Position numbers and translations under genes: made by a program | Shown: in pieces, positions 17,906-28,104 of the stretch | How the letters are laid out: each line of letters starts with the position of its first letter | Position numbering within the stretch: the stretch's first letter is position 1 | The notes under the pieces: model-generated | Database searches by the model: none | The model's input: only the letters and a program-made list of their open reading frames with translations | What the model was told of the DNA's origin: nothing | DNA from: Planctomycetota bacterium | GTDB lineage: Bacteria > Planctomycetota > UBA8108 > SXIK01 | Assembly (NCBI GenBank): GCA_965223265.1 | Contig: OZ244999.1 | Span: forward strand, 7,424,001-7,488,000 | Reading direction: 5' to 3' | Length of the DNA stretch: 64,000 nt

Positions 17906-18149
17906 AGTGCGAAAGCGTGGTCAGTTCAACGCGGCCGAATCAGAACCTGATCCTGCTCCGCTCCGGCCGCAGAAATCAGTTGGACGAGCAACAAGGAAGC
18001 TCCAAAGGTAACAGGTCGTGTGGTCCAGCCGAACGACTTTCTCTTGTCTCGGTCGCCTCGCCACTCATTCCAGGATCCGAAGCCCGTGCGCGTGATCCCA
18101 ACGCGTGCAAAAAATGGCCTGCGAGGGCGGCGAATTGTGCCGCGTTTGC

Positions 18150-18218
18150 GTGGGAGTGTGGGTGGGAGTGTGGGTGGGAGTGTGGGTGGGAGTGTGGGTG
18201 GGAGTGTGGGTGGGAGTG
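18150..18218 (+). repeat. (GTGGGAGTGTGG) x5.7 tandem repeat, G-quadruplex-prone
   Basis: Five perfect 12-mers from 18150 plus a partial copy, with repeated GGG tracts. Confidence 0.95.
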
Positions 18219-18221
18219 GAC

Positions 18222-18331
18222 GTGTCCGGTACGCTTCTGACTCGGTATCGGTATCTGCCTCTGACTCTGACTCCGTATCCGTATCCGCCTCTGCCTCTGG
18301 CTCTGACTCCGTATCTGTTTCCGTATCTGTC
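18222..18331 (+). repeat. Left direct repeat of cassette A (hexamer-periodic TCTGAC/TCCGTA/TCTGCC array)
   Basis: 18222-18257 is identical over 36 nt to 18961-18996. Both continue as degenerate TCNGNN hexamers. Confidence 0.9.
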
Positions 18332-18337
18332 TCGTCG

Positions 18338-18370
18338 TCAAAACCCGCCGCGCGAAGTGCTGCACGGCGG
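18338..18370 (-). terminator. Hairpin plus T-tract downstream of four-helix-bundle gene A
   Basis: On the minus strand CCGCCGTGC...GCGCGGCGG is followed by GTTTTGA. The same structure is conserved downstream of copy C. Confidence 0.6.
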
Positions 18371-18385
18371 ACCAAGGTTTCCGCG

Positions 18386-18709
18386 TCAGCGCGTCAGTTT
18401 CCAGAGCATTGCCTGCAGCCGATCGATGTCCGCAAGCACCGCAGTTGTCTCCACTGCATCGACGTAGCCCCACGCCTCAGCAACGCGCAGAGCCGTCCGC
18501 ACCTCCTCGGCGCTGCCCGAAGCAATGCGCCAAAGATGGCCGCGGTCACGACCCTGACGCCGATTGCCCTCGCCGAGGTTGAGTGCCACTGAAGAACCCG
18601 CGTCGCGCAGCTGAGCGGCCAGCTTTGAGTCGTGACGACGGATGCTCGAGACAAGGGGACGCAGCTGACGAACGATGCCAAAAGTGTGATCCAGAGCAAG
18701 AAAGCTCAT
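18386..18709 (-). CDS. Four-helix-bundle protein (23S rRNA IVP / bAvd-like), copy A
   Basis: 107 aa with the family signature L..QLRDAGSSVALNLGEG...R...IASGSAEEV.T.L..A..WGY. GGAG RBS. Differs from copy C at 11 of 107 positions. Confidence 0.85.
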   Translation of the reverse strand: MSFLALDHTFGIVRQLRPLVSSIRRHDSKLAAQLRDAGSSVALNLGEGNRRQGRDRGHLWRIASGSAEEVRTALRVAEAWGYVDAVETTAVLADIDRLQAMLWKLTR

Positions 18710-18754
18710 GTGTGACTCCGGTAACGGCTGAGCGACCTGTCGCCGACGCCCGAC

Positions 18755-18878
18755 GCGGCGGCGTTTCACTGCCGCCAACCGAACGAGAGACGGGGTCAAG
18801 GGCGCGAAGCGCCGAGCGCAGCGAGGGCACCCTTGAGGCCGGCTCTCGTTCGGTTACGATCGACACAATCGCCGCCGC
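18755..18878 (-). ncRNA. Conserved structured leader element (RNA or ssDNA), copy A
   Basis: Nested stems GCGGCGGCG/CGCCGCCGC, AACCGAACGAGAG/CTCTCGTTCGGTT and TCAAGGG/CCCTTGA. The 42-nt core at 18795-18836 is identical in all three copies. Confidence 0.7.
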
Positions 18879-18960
18879 ACGCACGCCATAGCAACCCGCC
18901 GCTTCTCTGCCTGCCTCCGACTCGATCTCCGATTCCGCCTCGGAATGCGTGGGCGTGGGA

Positions 18961-19111
18961 GTGTCCGGTACGCTTCTGACTCGGTATCGGTATCTGGCTC
19001 TGACCCGTGTCTCCGTATCTGCCTCTGACTCTGACTCCGTATCCGTATCCGTATCTGCCTCTGACTCTGACTCCGTATCTGTTTCCGCCTCTGCCTCTGA
19101 ACAGAGGCGGA
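18961..19111 (+). repeat. Right direct repeat of cassette A (hexamer array ending in a hairpin)
   Basis: Matches 18222 onward. Ends with the inverted repeat TCCGCCTCTG...CAGAGGCGGA at 19084-19111. Confidence 0.9.
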
Positions 19112-19151
19112 TACGGACGCCGGGGACGCAGTCGGGACCGGCTCGTTTCGT

Positions 19152-21677
19152 TCACGGCAGATGGGCGCGGCTGCGGATCAACCACTCCACTAGCAGGATT
19201 CCAAGCACGAGTGACAGCAGCAGTAAAGGGGAATCCCACGCCGTCATGGTTTCGGTGTGGGCGGCGACGCGTGAGTCGCGGTGCCACAATTCGCCACACT
19301 CGTCGGCACGGCTGAGGGGCAGAAAGACGCCGTCGGTCAAGGTGGCGAGCTCCTTGAGAAGTGTGGCATTGCAGCTGAGATCTGAGGACTCGGGGTCATC
19401 TTCCGGGACGACCACAAAGGACACGGTCGCACGCTCCTTCGCTGCGTCGTAGCCAGGCACCGTGGCAGGATCGATGGCCGCATGGAATTCGCGCGCTGCG
19501 AGGGTGTTTTTCTCATCCCCATTCACCCTCGCAGGCTCGCCGTTGCCTACGGACTCGAGTAGCCGCTGCGCGGAAACACGGCCTCGATACCGATGCCCGC
19601 CGCGTTCGACGGGTGCCAGCGTGACGCGCAGCCGCGGAGCTCCGGCGGCACTGGTCGTCGCCGCGTCGACCGTGCTGGCCGTGAGCAGGGCGGTGATGCG
19701 GTCGACGTTCGCCGCGGTGACGTCGTCCTTCAAGACGGTCTCGATCGTGATGTCTTCGTTCGACTCGTAGATCGTCTCGCTAGCGCCAAGGCGCAGCGCA
19801 TCGTCTTCTTCACTCAGCTCGGAGAGCACCGCAAATCGCACAAGTTGCTCCCAGAACCGGGTGTGCAGTCGGTCTCCAATGCGATAACGCCATCGCCAGG
19901 TTGAATCGATTCCGAGATAGATCACGCGACCCGCACCGATGTCGCGGGTCACGAGAACCGCGCCTCGCGAATGCACGAATTCGCGAGCTCGCGCGGCGCG
20001 ATTTCGAACGCCCGCCGCAAACGAGTCGAATCCTCTCAACTTCTTCACATCCCGCACGGCTACGCTCGCCAGGACCTCGGCTCCCTCGACAACACCGTCA
20101 ACCGGTGAAAGCCATAGATGGGCTGGGAGAAGCTCCCACAACTCGACGTTGCGTTCGCGATCGGTCAGAAGGCGTGTGATGGGAGATCTTTCGCCAGCAG
20201 GTGTCAACTCGAGGCTCAACCCCTCGCGCGCGGTCACGAAGCCAAGCTGCGTCGACGGCAGCGGATCGACGGGTCGGATCGGTAGTAGATCAGCCAGCGG
20301 CGTTGCGAGCCACGCGTATGGCATGTGCTGCGGTCCCGCCAACAACATCAGGGTGCCGCCGCGCTCAGTGACGAAGTCGTTGAGTAGTCTTTTCAGCTCT
20401 CGCGACATCACGTCGGGTGACACGTCACCGAGGATCAAGAGCGTGTGCTCGAACAGCCCCTCTCGCGTGGTGGGAAATTCCGGCGGCAACACGTCGTTCG
20501 GTGCCGCTGCGAGCAAAAGCGTCTCGGCGTCAAAGCGTTCATCGCGCTGCCAGCGAGCCCGAAGATAGCGCCAGTCCCATCGCGGTCGACCCTCCAGATA
20601 GAGGACTCGCGCTGGGCCTTCCACCACGTCGACCCACAGTTCACGCGTGTTGTTGTCGGCGGTGATCTCCCCGGGCTCCGCCGGCACACTGACGACAAAC
20701 TTCTTACGACCTGCCGCGCCAGGATCGAATGCAACCGATACGCCCATTGTTCCACCCCCGTCGGGCACGGTCAGTCTCTGTTCGAAGATCGTTTCGTCCT
20801 CACGTCGCACGATCACATCCAGAGGAGTGCCTGCGTCAAACCCATTAACTCTGAGAGTCACATGCGCCTTGACGCTCTCACCGACCAAGAGACGGCGATC
20901 AGCGTCGATCCGGAGTAGGTCGACGTCCCGAGGCGGATCGATCGGCCCCACGCCAATGGCAGCAACCGGCGCGTTGAGCGCCGCAATGCGTTCGAAGGCT
21001 GCAGCAAGATCGTCAGGCGAGTGATGCCTGCCGTCGGTGACAAGCAACACGCCGGCAAGTCGCCGCCGATCTGCGAGCCGCATCAGCTCCGCGGCCAAAG
21101 GGGAGCCGAGATGCGTCCCCCCCGCCGCCCGCAGTGAATCCATCGCAGCCTGCTGCTCGGCCGCGTTGTCGCCGGGAAGCGGTGTGACATGGTCGGCGAG
21201 GGCGTAGAACTCTACATCGAAATCCCTCACCAGATCCTGCCACCAGCGCGTCGTAAAGAGTCGACGTGCGCGCTCGAGGCGCGTTGATCGACGCACGCGC
21301 TCGAGGACGACACGACTGGATTCGTCGATGTCGTGCTCGGACGCCGCGAGCTTTTCGGTCGGCAGATACTCCAGCACGGCCGCCTCACCGCGCACGGCGG
21401 CAGACGATTGCTGCGGATCGGTGAGGCCGAAGCTGGCGGAGGCGTCGAGCATCACCGCCAGAGTTGAGTGTTCGACTCGCCGCCGCTCACGCTGCCAACT
21501 CGGATTGGCGAGCAACGTGACGACGACAGCAATGAGCACGAGACGCGTCCCCGTGATGGCGATCGCGACTCCAGCGCCGCTAGCCCGCCGCTCACGCCCA
21601 CCCAGCGAGTATGCCAAACCCGCGGCACAGGCGAGCAGGACAACTACCCACTGAAGGCTCAGACCGGGGTCACTCAT
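19152..21677 (-). CDS. VWA-like plus glutamine-amidotransferase-like membrane protein (moxR/BatA cluster)
   Basis: N- and C-terminal TM segments, DASASF MIDAS-like motif, LVTDG, YLEGRPRWDWRYL, DSTWRWR and C-terminal EWLIR. Confidence 0.8.
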   Translation of the reverse strand: MSDPGLSLQWVVVLLACAAGLAYSLGGRERRASGAGVAIAITGTRLVLIAVVVTLLANPSWQRERRRVEHSTLAVMLDASASFGLTDPQQSSAAVRGEAAVLEYLPTEKLAASEHDIDESSRVVLERVRRSTRLERARRLFTTRWWQDLVRDFDVEFYALADHVTPLPGDNAAEQQAAMDSLRAAGGTHLGSPLAAELMRLADRRRLAGVLLVTDGRHHSPDDLAAAFERIAALNAPVAAIGVGPIDPPRDVDLLRIDADRRLLVGESVKAHVTLRVNGFDAGTPLDVIVRREDETIFEQRLTVPDGGGTMGVSVAFDPGAAGRKKFVVSVPAEPGEITADNNTRELWVDVVEGPARVLYLEGRPRWDWRYLRARWQRDERFDAETLLLAAAPNDVLPPEFPTTREGLFEHTLLILGDVSPDVMSRELKRLLNDFVTERGGTLMLLAGPQHMPYAWLATPLADLLPIRPVDPLPSTQLGFVTAREGLSLELTPAGERSPITRLLTDRERNVELWELLPAHLWLSPVDGVVEGAEVLASVAVRDVKKLRGFDSFAAGVRNRAARAREFVHSRGAVLVTRDIGAGRVIYLGIDSTWRWRYRIGDRLHTRFWEQLVRFAVLSELSEEDDALRLGASETIYESNEDITIETVLKDDVTAANVDRITALLTASTVDAATTSAAGAPRLRVTLAPVERGGHRYRGRVSAQRLLESVGNGEPARVNGDEKNTLAAREFHAAIDPATVPGYDAAKERATVSFVVVPEDDPESSDLSCNATLLKELATLTDGVFLPLSRADECGELWHRDSRVAAHTETMTAWDSPLLLLSLVLGILLVEWLIRSRAHLP

Positions 21678-25530: not shown

Positions 25531-25710
25531 GCGATCGCGTGGCGCGTGGGGTTTCCTAAACTAGCGGGTGCACGCCGAGGCTGTGAATCTTTTGGGACGT
25601 GCCCTCGAAACTTACGGTCACGGTCCGGACGACACACGTCACCGTGTGCCGTCCGCTCTTGCGAGAGCGAGAGGGGGAGTCCGTGTGGGAGTGGGAGGGG
25701 GAGTGGGAGG

Positions 25711-26285
25711 GGGAGTCCGTGTGGGAGTCCGTGTGGGAGGGGGTGCGCGCCTCTTCAACGTGGCAGGCACACGCCGTGTGCCGTCCGGCCTTGTCGGCGT
25801 GCGCGTCGGCCGTTCCCGTGGGTGTGGGAGTCCGTGTGGGAGTCCGTGTGGGAGGGGGTGCGCGCCTCTTCAACGTGGCAGGCACACGCCGTGTGCCGTC
25901 CGGCCTTGTCGGCGTGCGCGTCGGCCGTTCCCGTGGGTGTGGGAGTCCGTGTGGGAGTCCGTGTGGGAGGGGGTGCGCGCCTCTTCAACGTGGCAGGCAC
26001 ACGCCGTGTGCCGTCCGGCCTTGTCGGCGTGCGCGTCGGCCGTTCCCGTGGGTGTGGGAGTCCGTGTGGGAGTCCGTGTGGGAGGGGGTGCGCGCCTCTT
26101 CAACGTGGCAGGCACACGCCGTGTGCCGTCCGGCCTTGTCGGCGTGCGCGTCGGCCGTTCCCGTGGGTGTGGGAGTCCGTGTGGGAGTCCGTGTGGGAGG
26201 GGGTGCGCGCCTCTTCAACGTGGCAGGCACACGCCGTGTGCCGTCCGGCCTTGTCGGCGTGCGCGTCGGCCGTTCCCGTGGGTGT
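25711..26285 (+). repeat. Five perfect tandem copies of a 115-bp unit, each with a REP-like palindrome
   Basis: CTCTTCAACG recurs at 25751, 25866, 25981, 26096 and 26211. Each unit contains GTGG-CA-GGCACAC-GCC-GTGTGCC-GTCC. Confidence 0.95.
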
Positions 26286-26345
26286 GGGAGTCCGTGTGGG
26301 AGTCCGTGTGGGAGTCCGTGTGGGAGTCCGTGTGGGAGTCCGTGT
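26286..26345 (+). repeat. (GGGAGTCCGTGT) x5 tandem repeat
   Basis: Five perfect 12-mers immediately before leader B. Confidence 0.95.
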
Positions 26346-26363
26346 GGGTTGGGGTCACCGTAC

Positions 26364-26484
26364 GGCGGCGGTCTTGTCGAGCTTACGCGGTGCTCAGAAC
26401 TGTCAAGGGTGCCCTCGCTGCGCTCGGCGCTTCGCGCCCTTGACAGTTCCTCCGCTCCGCGTTGGGGGGTGGAGTACCGCCGCC
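26364..26484 (+). ncRNA. Conserved structured leader element, copy B
   Basis: Stems GGCGGCGGT/ACCGCCGCC, ACGCGG/CCGCGT and GAACTGTCAAGGG/CCCTTGACAGTTC. The core at 26403-26444 is identical to copies A and C. Confidence 0.7.
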
Positions 26485-26526: not shown

Positions 26527-26850
26527 ATGCGCTTCATCGCTCTCGATGTCAGTCTCGGTTTGATTCGCGATTTGCGGGCTCCACTGCTGCGGCTTCGGAG
26601 GCTTGATCCCGATCTCCATCGGCAGATTCGGCGGGCTGCTTCTTCGGTCGCGCTCAATCTCTCCGAGGGTGCCGAGCGCGCTGGGAAAGACCGGCTGCAC
26701 CTCTACCGCGTTGCGCGCGGCAGTGCCCGGGAGGTCGAGACTGCCCTGCAGCTCTCTGTGGCCTGGGGCGATCTCAAGTGCGAAGACGTCTCAGCGCCTC
26801 TCCAGACCCTCGATCGACTCCTAGCTCTTCTCAGCGGCCTCACGCGCTGA
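26527..26850 (+). CDS. Four-helix-bundle protein (23S rRNA IVP / bAvd-like), copy B
   Basis: 107 aa after a GGAGG RBS (26516-26520), with QIRRAASSVALNLSEG...RVARGSAREV.TAL...AWG. 55 of 107 residues identical to copy C, ungapped. Confidence 0.85.
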   Translation: MRFIALDVSLGLIRDLRAPLLRLRRLDPDLHRQIRRAASSVALNLSEGAERAGKDRLHLYRVARGSAREVETALQLSVAWGDLKCEDVSAPLQTLDRLLALLSGLTR

Positions 26851-27337: not shown

Positions 27338-27661
27338 TCAGCGCGTCAGCTTCCAAAGCATCGCCTGCAGCTCGTCGATGTCCGCAAGCACCGAAGCTGT
27401 CTCCTGCGCATCGACGTAGCCCCAAGCCTCAGCAACACGGAGCGCCGTACGCACCTCTTCGGCACTGCCTGAAGCGACACGCCAAAGGTGCCCGCGGTCA
27501 CGACCAGAGCGCCGATTGCCCTCGCCCAAATTCAGCGCCACGGAGGACCCCGCGTCGCGCAGCTGAGCGGCAAGCTTCGAGTCGTGACGACGCACACGCG
27601 AGACAAGCGGACGCAACTGACGAACGATACCAACAGAGTGATCCAAAGCGAGAAAGCCCAT
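27338..27661 (-). CDS. Four-helix-bundle protein (23S rRNA IVP / bAvd-like), copy C
   Basis: 107 aa, about 90% identical to copy A. GGAG RBS. Confidence 0.85.
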   Translation of the reverse strand: MGFLALDHSVGIVRQLRPLVSRVRRHDSKLAAQLRDAGSSVALNLGEGNRRSGRDRGHLWRVASGSAEEVRTALRVAEAWGYVDAQETASVLADIDELQAMLWKLTR

Positions 27662-27710: not shown

Positions 27711-27834
27711 GCGGCGGCGTTTCACCCCCGCCAACGGAAGCAGAGTCGGGGTCAAGGGCGCGAAGCGCCGAGCGCAGCGAGGGCACCCTTGAGGCCGGCT
27801 CTGCTTCGGTTACGCTCGACAATACCGCCGCCGC
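27711..27834 (-). ncRNA. Conserved structured leader element, copy C
   Basis: Same 124-nt architecture as copy A, with the core at 27751-27792. The middle stem GAAGCAGAG/CTCTGCTTC is compensatory relative to A. Confidence 0.7.
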
Positions 27835-27859: not shown

Positions 27860-27991
27860 TCTCTGCTTCTGTCTCTGCTTCTGTCTCTGCTTCTGTCTCT
27901 GCTTCTGTCTCTGCTTCTGTCTCTGCTTCTGTCTCTGCTTCTGTCTCTGCTTCTGTCTCTGCTTCTGTCTCTGCTTCTGTCTCTGCTTCTG
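27860..27991 (+). repeat. (TCTCTGCTTCTG) x11 perfect tandem repeat
   Basis: Eleven 12-mers counted directly. Confidence 0.95.
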
Positions 27992-28104
27992 TCTCTGTCT
28001 CCGACTCACTAGGCGTCGACGTCTGCTTGACCTCTGAATCGCGGTGAACTCCGCAGGTCAGACGGGCGCGAATGGCTGCCAGACTCGCTAGACCCAAGGA
28101 CAGG

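Follow-up and report, generated by a model that had tools for sequence, protein, structure and literature searches.

Which strand, and in which chemistry, gives its function to a short conserved sequence upstream of a small planctomycete gene? The question is raised by 42 bases in the window, as the whole stretch of 64,000 nucleotides analysed here is called, for which a preliminary description had proposed single-stranded DNA with twin G-N-A mini-hairpins on the strand antisense to the gene. Sequence comparison shows these 42 bases to be the tip of a conserved hairpin in the leader that precedes a PF05635 (Avd-like) gene, the two together forming a cassette present in many copies. As to the working form, the reading preferred here, at a probability of roughly 40%, is that of a sense leader RNA, in which the stem would serve processing or stability and the invariant tip would be a handle for a factor acting in trans.

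Results

The cassettes of the window

The features of the three cassettes found in the window are collected in Table 1. Copy 1 has a hairpin of approx. 80 nt, with about 85 nt between its tip and the ATG (18709) of the PF05635/TIGR02436 gene downstream, and a GGAG at 18716-18719 precedes this start codon. PF05635 bears the name 23S rRNA-intervening sequence protein, TIGR02436 that of four helix bundle protein. The terminator-like stem at 18340-18370 was not listed by the consensus scan. The arrays around copy 1 share a single inverted match, of 16 nt (18278-18293 with 19102-19117). Arrays of period 6 or 12 stand at 18150-18333, 18975-19100, 25671-26348 and 27860-27997, the unit being different between the loci. 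Reading by eye showed period-6 arrays upstream of the leader also in two MAGs, G004 (a second one from the Planctomycetota) and one from the Sandaracinaceae, and at many metagenome PF05635 loci (flanking arrays were viewed at L065-L074, L071-L075 and L143-L200). Just upstream of the type B leader, 5.3 repeats of a 115-nt unit (99% identity) occupy 25703-26314, and each unit contains a GGCACAC/GTGTGCC hairpin.

Table 1. Features of the three cassettes in the window (positions in the window; for the parts of the tip the plus-strand letters are given)
Feature	Position	Strand	Basis or remark
Tandem arrays, period 12 and period-6-based, downstream of the gene	18150-18333	.	Tandem Repeats Finder
Terminator-like GC stem, then GTTTT, past the stop codon	18340-18370	-	Read from the sequence
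Copy 1 gene, 107-aa four-helix bundle, type A	18386-18709	-	PF05635 E 3.5e-14; TIGR02436 E 1.1e-14
GC-rich flanking complements	18755-18878	-	GCGGCGGCGA 18869-18878, CGCCGCCGC 18755-18763 (sense)
Whole long hairpin, copy 1	18777-18855	-	Arms AACCGAACGAGAG 18777-18789, CTCTCGTTCGGTT 18843-18855
Copy 1 tip, three-way junction	18796-18836	-	Sequence and pair table of 19 unique tips
Outer stem, TCAAGGG paired with CCCTTGA	18796-18802 and 18830-18836		Plus-strand letters
Hairpin 1, CGC-GAA-GCG	18803-18811		Plus-strand letters
Hairpin 2, CCGAGC-GCA-GCGAGG	18812-18826		Plus-strand letters
Junction, GCA	18827-18829		Plus-strand letters
Related tandem arrays upstream of the leader	18975-19100	.	Direct orientation relative to 18150-18333
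Copy 2 tip, type B leader	26403-26443	+	Inside hairpin 26385-26462
Copy 2 gene, type B four-helix bundle	26527-26850	+	PF05635 E 3.7e-13; 50% identical to copy 1 (alignment)
Copy 3 gene, type A four-helix bundle	27338-27661	-	PF05635 E 8.5e-15; convergent with copy 2
Copy 3 tip, type A leader	27752-27792	-	Inside hairpin 27733-27811

Fold of the tip

The plus strand at 18795-18836 reads GTCAAGGGCGCGAAGCGCCGAGCGCAGCGAGGGCACCCTTGA, which is the core as it was originally written. Direct reading confirmed that both GCGAAGC (18804-18810) and GCGCAGC (18816-18822) stand on this strand, antisense to the gene at 18386-18709 (minus strand), and for the source genome the GC-GNA-GC heptamer with its C-G closing pair was found on one strand.

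A structural pair table of 19 unique tips, taken from two genomes and two metagenome contigs, shows the tip to be a three-way junction of a 7-bp outer stem, a hairpin of six pairs with a 2x2 mismatch (hairpin 2) and a triloop hairpin of 3-4 bp (hairpin 1). In the sense direction it reads as the stem UCAAGGG/CCCUUGA, the junction UGC, hairpin 2 CCUCGC-UGC-GCUCGG and hairpin 1 CGC-UUC-GCG. Hairpin 1 has one of two stems, CGC/GCG (12 tips) or CGAC/GUCG (7 tips), the latter with a compensated inserted A-U pair. The UC/UC (sense) mismatch of hairpin 2 is replaced by G-C plus C-G in the metagenome contig L136 and by G-C plus G.U in L211. Pair 6 of the outer stem is G-C in 13/19 and A-U in 4/19 tips (both genomes represented), and pair 7 is A-U in one of the 19. 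Since compensated changes occur in homologues from the second MAG and from the metagenome contigs, both mini-hairpins are real. The two mini-hairpins of the preliminary drawing therefore stand, while its details had to be corrected: two G's placed in hairpin 1 belong to the outer stem, hairpin 1 has 3-4 pairs and not five, and hairpin 2 has six positions and not two.

The twin hairpins are absent from the nearest-neighbour fold of copy 1 on both strands; in L136 the three-way junction is the minimum free energy (MFE) structure on both strands. The MFE fold of the sense RNA (a UGC/GCG extension plus CGCUG/CGGCG) was rejected, since the junction base which it requires varies (G to A twice, to C and to U) and the changes in L136 and L211 suit the three-way junction instead.

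Beneath the tip, the long hairpin of copy 1 is interrupted by small internal loops and includes a short CGG/CCG helix, and the inverted repeat has 29-nt arms which are 86% complementary. The arms of the long hairpin vary between paralogues yet remain complementary. Outside them, GCGGCGGCGA could pair with CGCCGCCGC, for which GGCGGC at 18771-18776 would be an alternative partner; such GC-rich flanking complements were also found in leader types A and B and in G004, L136 and L137. Rfam 15 gave no match at the gathering score in the 64-kb window and eight related loci, and at E<=1 the region 18690-18960 matched two plant miRNA models only, far under threshold.

Loop sequences

On the antisense strand the loop of hairpin 1 is GAA in 10, GCA in 6, AAA in 2 and ACA in 1 of the 19 unique tips, and that of hairpin 2 is GCA in 11 and GAA in 5, with GGA, AAA and GCAA (the latter in L136) once each; a further G004 copy has a GTA loop. 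The consensus is R-N-A, with the last A in 19/19, a free middle base and a purine in first place. Of the G-N-A pattern, the loss of which in homologues had been named as a refutation, the final A is thus invariant, while the first G is A in 4/19 tips; in each of these tips one loop is A-N-A, and all four stand before intact genes. In G004, hairpin 1 is AC-GNA-GT and not GC-GNA-GC.

As to the claim that such triloops are stable in DNA and not in RNA, a mini-hairpin review gives a Tm of 76.5 °C for the DNA GCGAAGC against 39 °C for r(GCGAAAGC), and according to it no melting was seen for GCAAAAGC (PMC13037366). Since A-N-A tips precede intact genes and GCAAAAGC showed no melting, extreme stability of the mini-hairpins is not strictly required.

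Copies in the genome

For the 29-nt core, 3 matches were counted in the window and none in 100 shuffles. In the source genome (9.18 Mb, single contig, 62% G+C) there are 39 matches with up to 5 mismatches against none for the reversed control, and one gapped copy brings the number to 40. The twin motif alone is not rare, as GCGNAGC occurs 13,915 times on both strands, with 356 same-strand pairs 7-35 nt apart; the repetition of the core, unlike that of the twin heptamers alone, exceeds chance. A core stands upstream on the same strand in 36 of the 38 PF05635 matches of this genome. Conversely, 36 of the 40 cores precede a PF05635 gene, and 3 of the 4 without a gene match are visibly truncated. 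Contigs of four sequencing runs (of unknown kind) show an approx. 25-fold pile-up at the tip (depth 346 versus 13.7 in X1) and fork at 18795 and 18835/6, the edges of the tip; thus the copies of the tip are not an assembly artefact. When complementarity to the tip was sought elsewhere in the genome, the 23S gene included, the sole strong match beyond the cassette loci already listed was one more cassette copy.

The tip is shared by three leader types which differ below it, with 17 copies of type A, 17 of type B and 5 of type C. It is nearly invariant across gene subtypes with proteins 50% identical, and the stem beneath it varies with compensation. At 8304528 and 8372041 (L030, L038) the 5' arm comes from type B and the 3' arm from type C, with the shared tip between them, and the arms mismatch; judged from their sequences, these two chimeric hairpins look like the result of exchange between cassette types within the tip. 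In the type A copies at 906382, 7190500 and 8370691 the 3' outer arm CCCTTGACC is replaced by CCTTCTGAGAGTGACCGCRCC directly after hairpin 1, a replacement common to the three despite their different long stems. The five type C cassettes (near 2583926, 6781806, 7189145, 8597819 and 8979554; L028, L051-L054, L058) all lie approx. 390 nt from a divergent large serine recombinase of about 700 aa (Resolvase E 6e-20, Recombinase E 4e-12), each within a 3.2-3.6-kb repeat which is 97-98% identical among the five.

Homologous and more distant leaders

The other three genomes of the family contain no PF05635 matches and, as judged by the 29-nt core scan, no cores. In G004, 13 PF05635 matches and 21 pattern hits were found, the proteins being 63-72% identical to that of copy 1. 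Further homologous leaders were obtained from the metagenome contigs L136, L137 and L211, and a degenerate one from L138. The same or a compensated tip is present in G004, L136, L137 and L211, with proteins 50-68% identical; in L137 the tip is identical and the protein 62% identical. Among 20 genomes of the order around G004, a true leader was found in G004 alone.

A scan of the phylum with a 21-nt pattern (<=2 mismatches) matched 118 of 401 genomes and was discarded as background, as reversed controls matched too; none of the 30 loci fetched from it had a PF05635 gene or the hairpin. The 40 matches in G409 (5 Mb, same order as G004) are not leaders. They represent an unrelated repeat of approx. 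250 nt, present 40 times and often at contig ends, which has the 16-mer CCCTCGCTCCGCTCGG of the tip (L220, L227, L230, L233, L236, L239, L242, L244).

In PF05635 leaders more distant than these, namely those of Sandaracinaceae, of a Deltaproteobacteria MAG and of a sister class represented by 25 metagenome loci, the hairpins are also long but end in other tips. The sister class is widespread (L140, L143-L148, L151-L157, L159, L161, L164, L167, L168, L174, L176, L182, L185, L187, L189, L190). The 3' arm of its outer helix carries an AAAGGAG ribosome-binding site, its GGCGCA...UGCGCC helix covaries, its internal motif GCGCC/GUCAC is invariant, and the three members scanned matched no Rfam family.

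Strand preference

In 32 unique but related hairpins, 581 of the 689 unpaired positions (84%) are pyrimidines on the sense strand, which means purines on the antisense strand; A is found at 37 of the 689. Such a share of pyrimidines at unpaired sense positions is unusual for structured RNAs. The non-Watson-Crick features of the antisense strand are all of purine type, namely the G-N-A loops, tandem G.A, GG/GG and A.G mismatches. The purine-rich unpaired bases favour the antisense strand, i.e. the strand to which the preliminary description had assigned the fold.

The energy of the junction was -10.2 kcal/mol in sense RNA versus an MFE of -22.4 kcal/mol (12.2 above), and -13.0 versus -17.8 kcal/mol (4.8 above) in antisense RNA. 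As RNA, the 89-nt hairpin has a z-score of -6.5 in sense versus -4.4 in antisense. The z-scores of the 167-nt leader (-3.05 sense, -2.51 antisense) are neutral, and so are those obtained for the two strands with DNA parameters (-5.45 and -5.62), which do not model the mini-hairpin effect. A pattern of G-U wobbles had been named as possible evidence for the sense RNA; the count, 3 G.U versus 1 A.C events in sense for the tip and about 8 versus 5 for the whole hairpin (read by eye), is neutral on the strand. In the sister class 62% of the unpaired sense positions are pyrimidines, the antisense strand folds lower in 21/25, and an invariant mismatch pair becomes U.G and A.G on the antisense strand. 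These results do not distinguish single-stranded DNA from RNA as the functional form.

Discussion

A possible sense leader RNA

According to the preferred reading, the element would act in the sense transcript, and the cassette would be transcribed by read-through from a co-oriented upstream gene. The long near-perfect stem may be a site of double-stranded-RNA processing or stability, by analogy with the RNase III stems of the intervening sequences (IVS) of 23S rRNA, and the invariant tip may be what a trans-acting factor recognises by sequence. The prime candidate for this factor would be the basic four-helix-bundle protein of the cassette itself, which would result in autoregulation.

The hairpin stands at a fixed position and in a fixed orientation before the gene and has covarying pairs, as found in leaders. 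It is internal to the conserved unit, as approx. 130 nt on its upstream side are conserved as well, and does not lie at a boundary. Copy 1 with its arrays (17906-19151) occupies 1,246 nt between same-strand genes of 841 and 236 aa, the orthologues of which are separated by at most about 45 nt in 3/3 family relatives (tblastn coordinate estimate; L247, L248, L249); by this comparison copy 1 was inserted between the two genes of a conserved pair. The nearest upstream ORF, chosen by a heuristic based on GC by codon position, is co-oriented in 25 of the 40 cassettes, or in 25 of 36 if the identical type C cassettes are counted once. Since the cassette lies inside a co-oriented gene pair and replication-strand bias is absent, an mRNA leader is favoured. 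The ribosome-binding site in the outer helix of the sister class also speaks for the sense leader, as does the lower z-score of the 89-nt hairpin in sense RNA. Against it, the junction is poorly favoured in the sense RNA of the source genome, co-orientation is partial, the promoter scan of 18100-19200 revealed no sigma-70 promoter-like site, the sister class folds lower in antisense, and the excess of pyrimidines in sense puts the purine motifs on the opposite strand.

The antisense strand as possible single-stranded DNA

The antisense strand could instead fold as single-stranded DNA, in the form of a leader cDNA or another exposed strand, with the twin G-N-A mini-hairpins as recognition or priming signal; we consider this unlikely. 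It would account for the two heptamers closed by C-G on that strand, GC-GAA-GC and GC-GCA-GC; there the mismatch of hairpin 2 becomes tandem G.A (others become G.G and A.G), L136 has a GCAA loop and the junction is closer to the MFE. The polarity of the element follows the gene and not replication, which would suit a cDNA. The melting data given in PMC13037366 cut both ways: the DNA mini-hairpins (approx. 76 °C) far exceed their RNA analogue (39 °C), but A-N-A loops occur in 4/19 tips before intact genes, and no melting is given there for GCAAAAGC. Hairpin 1 of G004, with AC-GNA-GT, the more distant PF05635 leaders, which are without the tip, and the missing replication-strand bias are further difficulties. 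The sole RVT_1 matches are four near-identical copies far from any cassette, and a Y1 transposase is represented by one weak match (PF01797, 27.3 bits).

As a priming (ssi-like) signal the element would be expected to follow the fork, and it does not: of 39 copies 22 are oriented as leading and 17 as lagging, with convergent pairs at 7 loci. This lack of replication-strand bias argues against a replication-linked priming signal. The 14-mer of the core which had been said to occur also in the ColE1/pBR322 primosome-assembly (ssiA) region, CCGAGCGCAGCGAG, is present in pMB1/pBR322-type vector backbones; in the printed sequence of a plasmid with pMB1-type origin it stands approx. 175 nt, by our own count, from the origin (10.1101/2024.09.09.611992). 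In PMC3167613, ssiA is placed within 419 nt downstream of the RNA/DNA switch. A match of 14 nt in G+C-rich DNA is weak evidence for a relation with ssiA.

That this antisense single strand is DNA (e.g. cDNA) and is bound by the Avd-like protein through the G-N-A mini-hairpins and the tandem G.A is quite unlikely. If it were true, free-standing PF05635 cassettes would amount to a widespread element that handles nucleic acids while encoding no reverse transcriptase itself, and the surrounding period-6 arrays could be products of such chemistry.

Other explanations

The tip might also act at the DNA level, as duplex or in extruded form, by serving as a site where recombination takes place or a protein binds, which would aid the spread of the cassettes or the exchange of their parts. 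The 38 PF05635 matches in the genome versus none in three family relatives, the two hairpins joined at the tip from a type B 5' arm and a type C 3' arm, a change or break directly after hairpin 1 in 5 of the first 39 copies, and the recombinase adjoining the five type C cassettes within their repeat would all fit. We nevertheless hold such a site to be rather improbable, as the hairpin is internal to the conserved unit, the compensated changes of stem length are easier to reconcile with a strand that folds than with a protein site in duplex DNA, and 35 cassettes have no adjoining recombinase.

An antisense RNA spanning the hairpin, e.g. a cis-antisense regulator of the cassette gene, would explain the unpaired purines of the antisense strand, the GCAA loop of L136, which is of GNRA type, and the better antisense fold of the sister class (21/25). 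Neither an antisense promoter nor a terminator was found in the scan of 18100-19200, the z-scores of the leader do not favour antisense, and to our knowledge GNA triloops have no special stability in RNA; an antisense RNA is therefore decidedly doubtful. It is very improbable that the tip has no function of its own and is uniform through recent spread and gene conversion of selfish copies, since, in spite of its near identity within the genome and the exchange among copies which the chimeric hairpins suggest, G004, L136, L137 and L211 all retain the tip, whether unchanged or with compensation.

Significance and comparison with known systems

PF05635 proteins are abundant and, as far as we know, familiar only as Avd of diversity-generating retroelements (DGRs) and as passengers of rRNA IVS, the free-standing ones having no assigned function. 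A conserved hairpin with covarying pairs accompanies the free-standing PF05635 genes of two planctomycete genomes and three metagenome contigs. The near-invariant three-way tip of this hairpin is a defined, short candidate ligand for binding, cleavage and probing, and it poses an either/or between sense RNA and a purine-looped opposite strand. The arrays, the family count of 38 versus 0 and the insertion into a gene pair point, at the level of sequence, to a mobile cassette design outside Rfam; a literature search, mostly at title level, brought up no description of such a cassette.

REP/RAYT and IS200/IS605 elements offer little likeness, as a single weak PF01797 match (27.3 bits) was found in the genome and 36/40 cores precede PF05635 genes. 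The attC sites of integrons are imperfect hairpins tied to small gene cassettes and are used as the folded bottom strand. The present element resembles them in being a cassette hairpin; here, however, the centre is conserved and the arms are variable, which is the opposite of attC, and the cassettes are scattered singly or as convergent pairs and are not arrayed.

The target regions of DGRs are flanked by hairpins with GRA/GAAA loops, and an Avd-like gene near a purine-loop hairpin is likewise found here. No reverse transcriptase was found beside the cassettes in the genome search, the 4 RVT_1 matches being located at 1.90, 3.42, 3.52 and 5.91 Mb. These ORFs (1895554, 3424405, 3516453 and 5913461; 449-455 aa) are near-identical and presumably belong to a mobile group II intron. 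The resemblance of Avd to PF05635 is stated in PMC10053308.

With the d(GCGNAGC)/d(GCGNNAGC) mini-hairpins of the phage G4 origin, RSF1010 ssiA and the N4 early promoters the element shares the same heptamers on one strand. Such motifs occur, according to the mini-hairpin review, at origins of replication and transcription (PMC13037366). The element differs from these signals in the change of the loop G to A in 4/19 tips, in the loss of the flanking GC pair in G004, and in having neither an origin context nor a replication-strand bias.

RNase III cuts the stems that release ORF-bearing IVS from 23S rRNA. As in the IVS with an S23p ORF (helix 45 of Coxiella burnetii, Leptospira), a PF05635 ORF is tied to a long stem here. 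The IVS is described as a selfish element of 428 nt (PMC4990558). In the rRNA IVS the ORF is enclosed by the stem, whereas in the present cassettes the hairpin lies wholly upstream of the ORF and the arrays flanking copy 1 are direct; the single 23S gene (2,007,925-2,010,917) contains no cassette. From autoregulated mRNA leaders of the ribosomal-protein type the element differs by its unusually pyrimidine-rich unpaired sense bases and by the absence of an Rfam 15 match, and it is similar to them in its fixed upstream position, its covarying helices and a conserved patch that is a candidate protein site.
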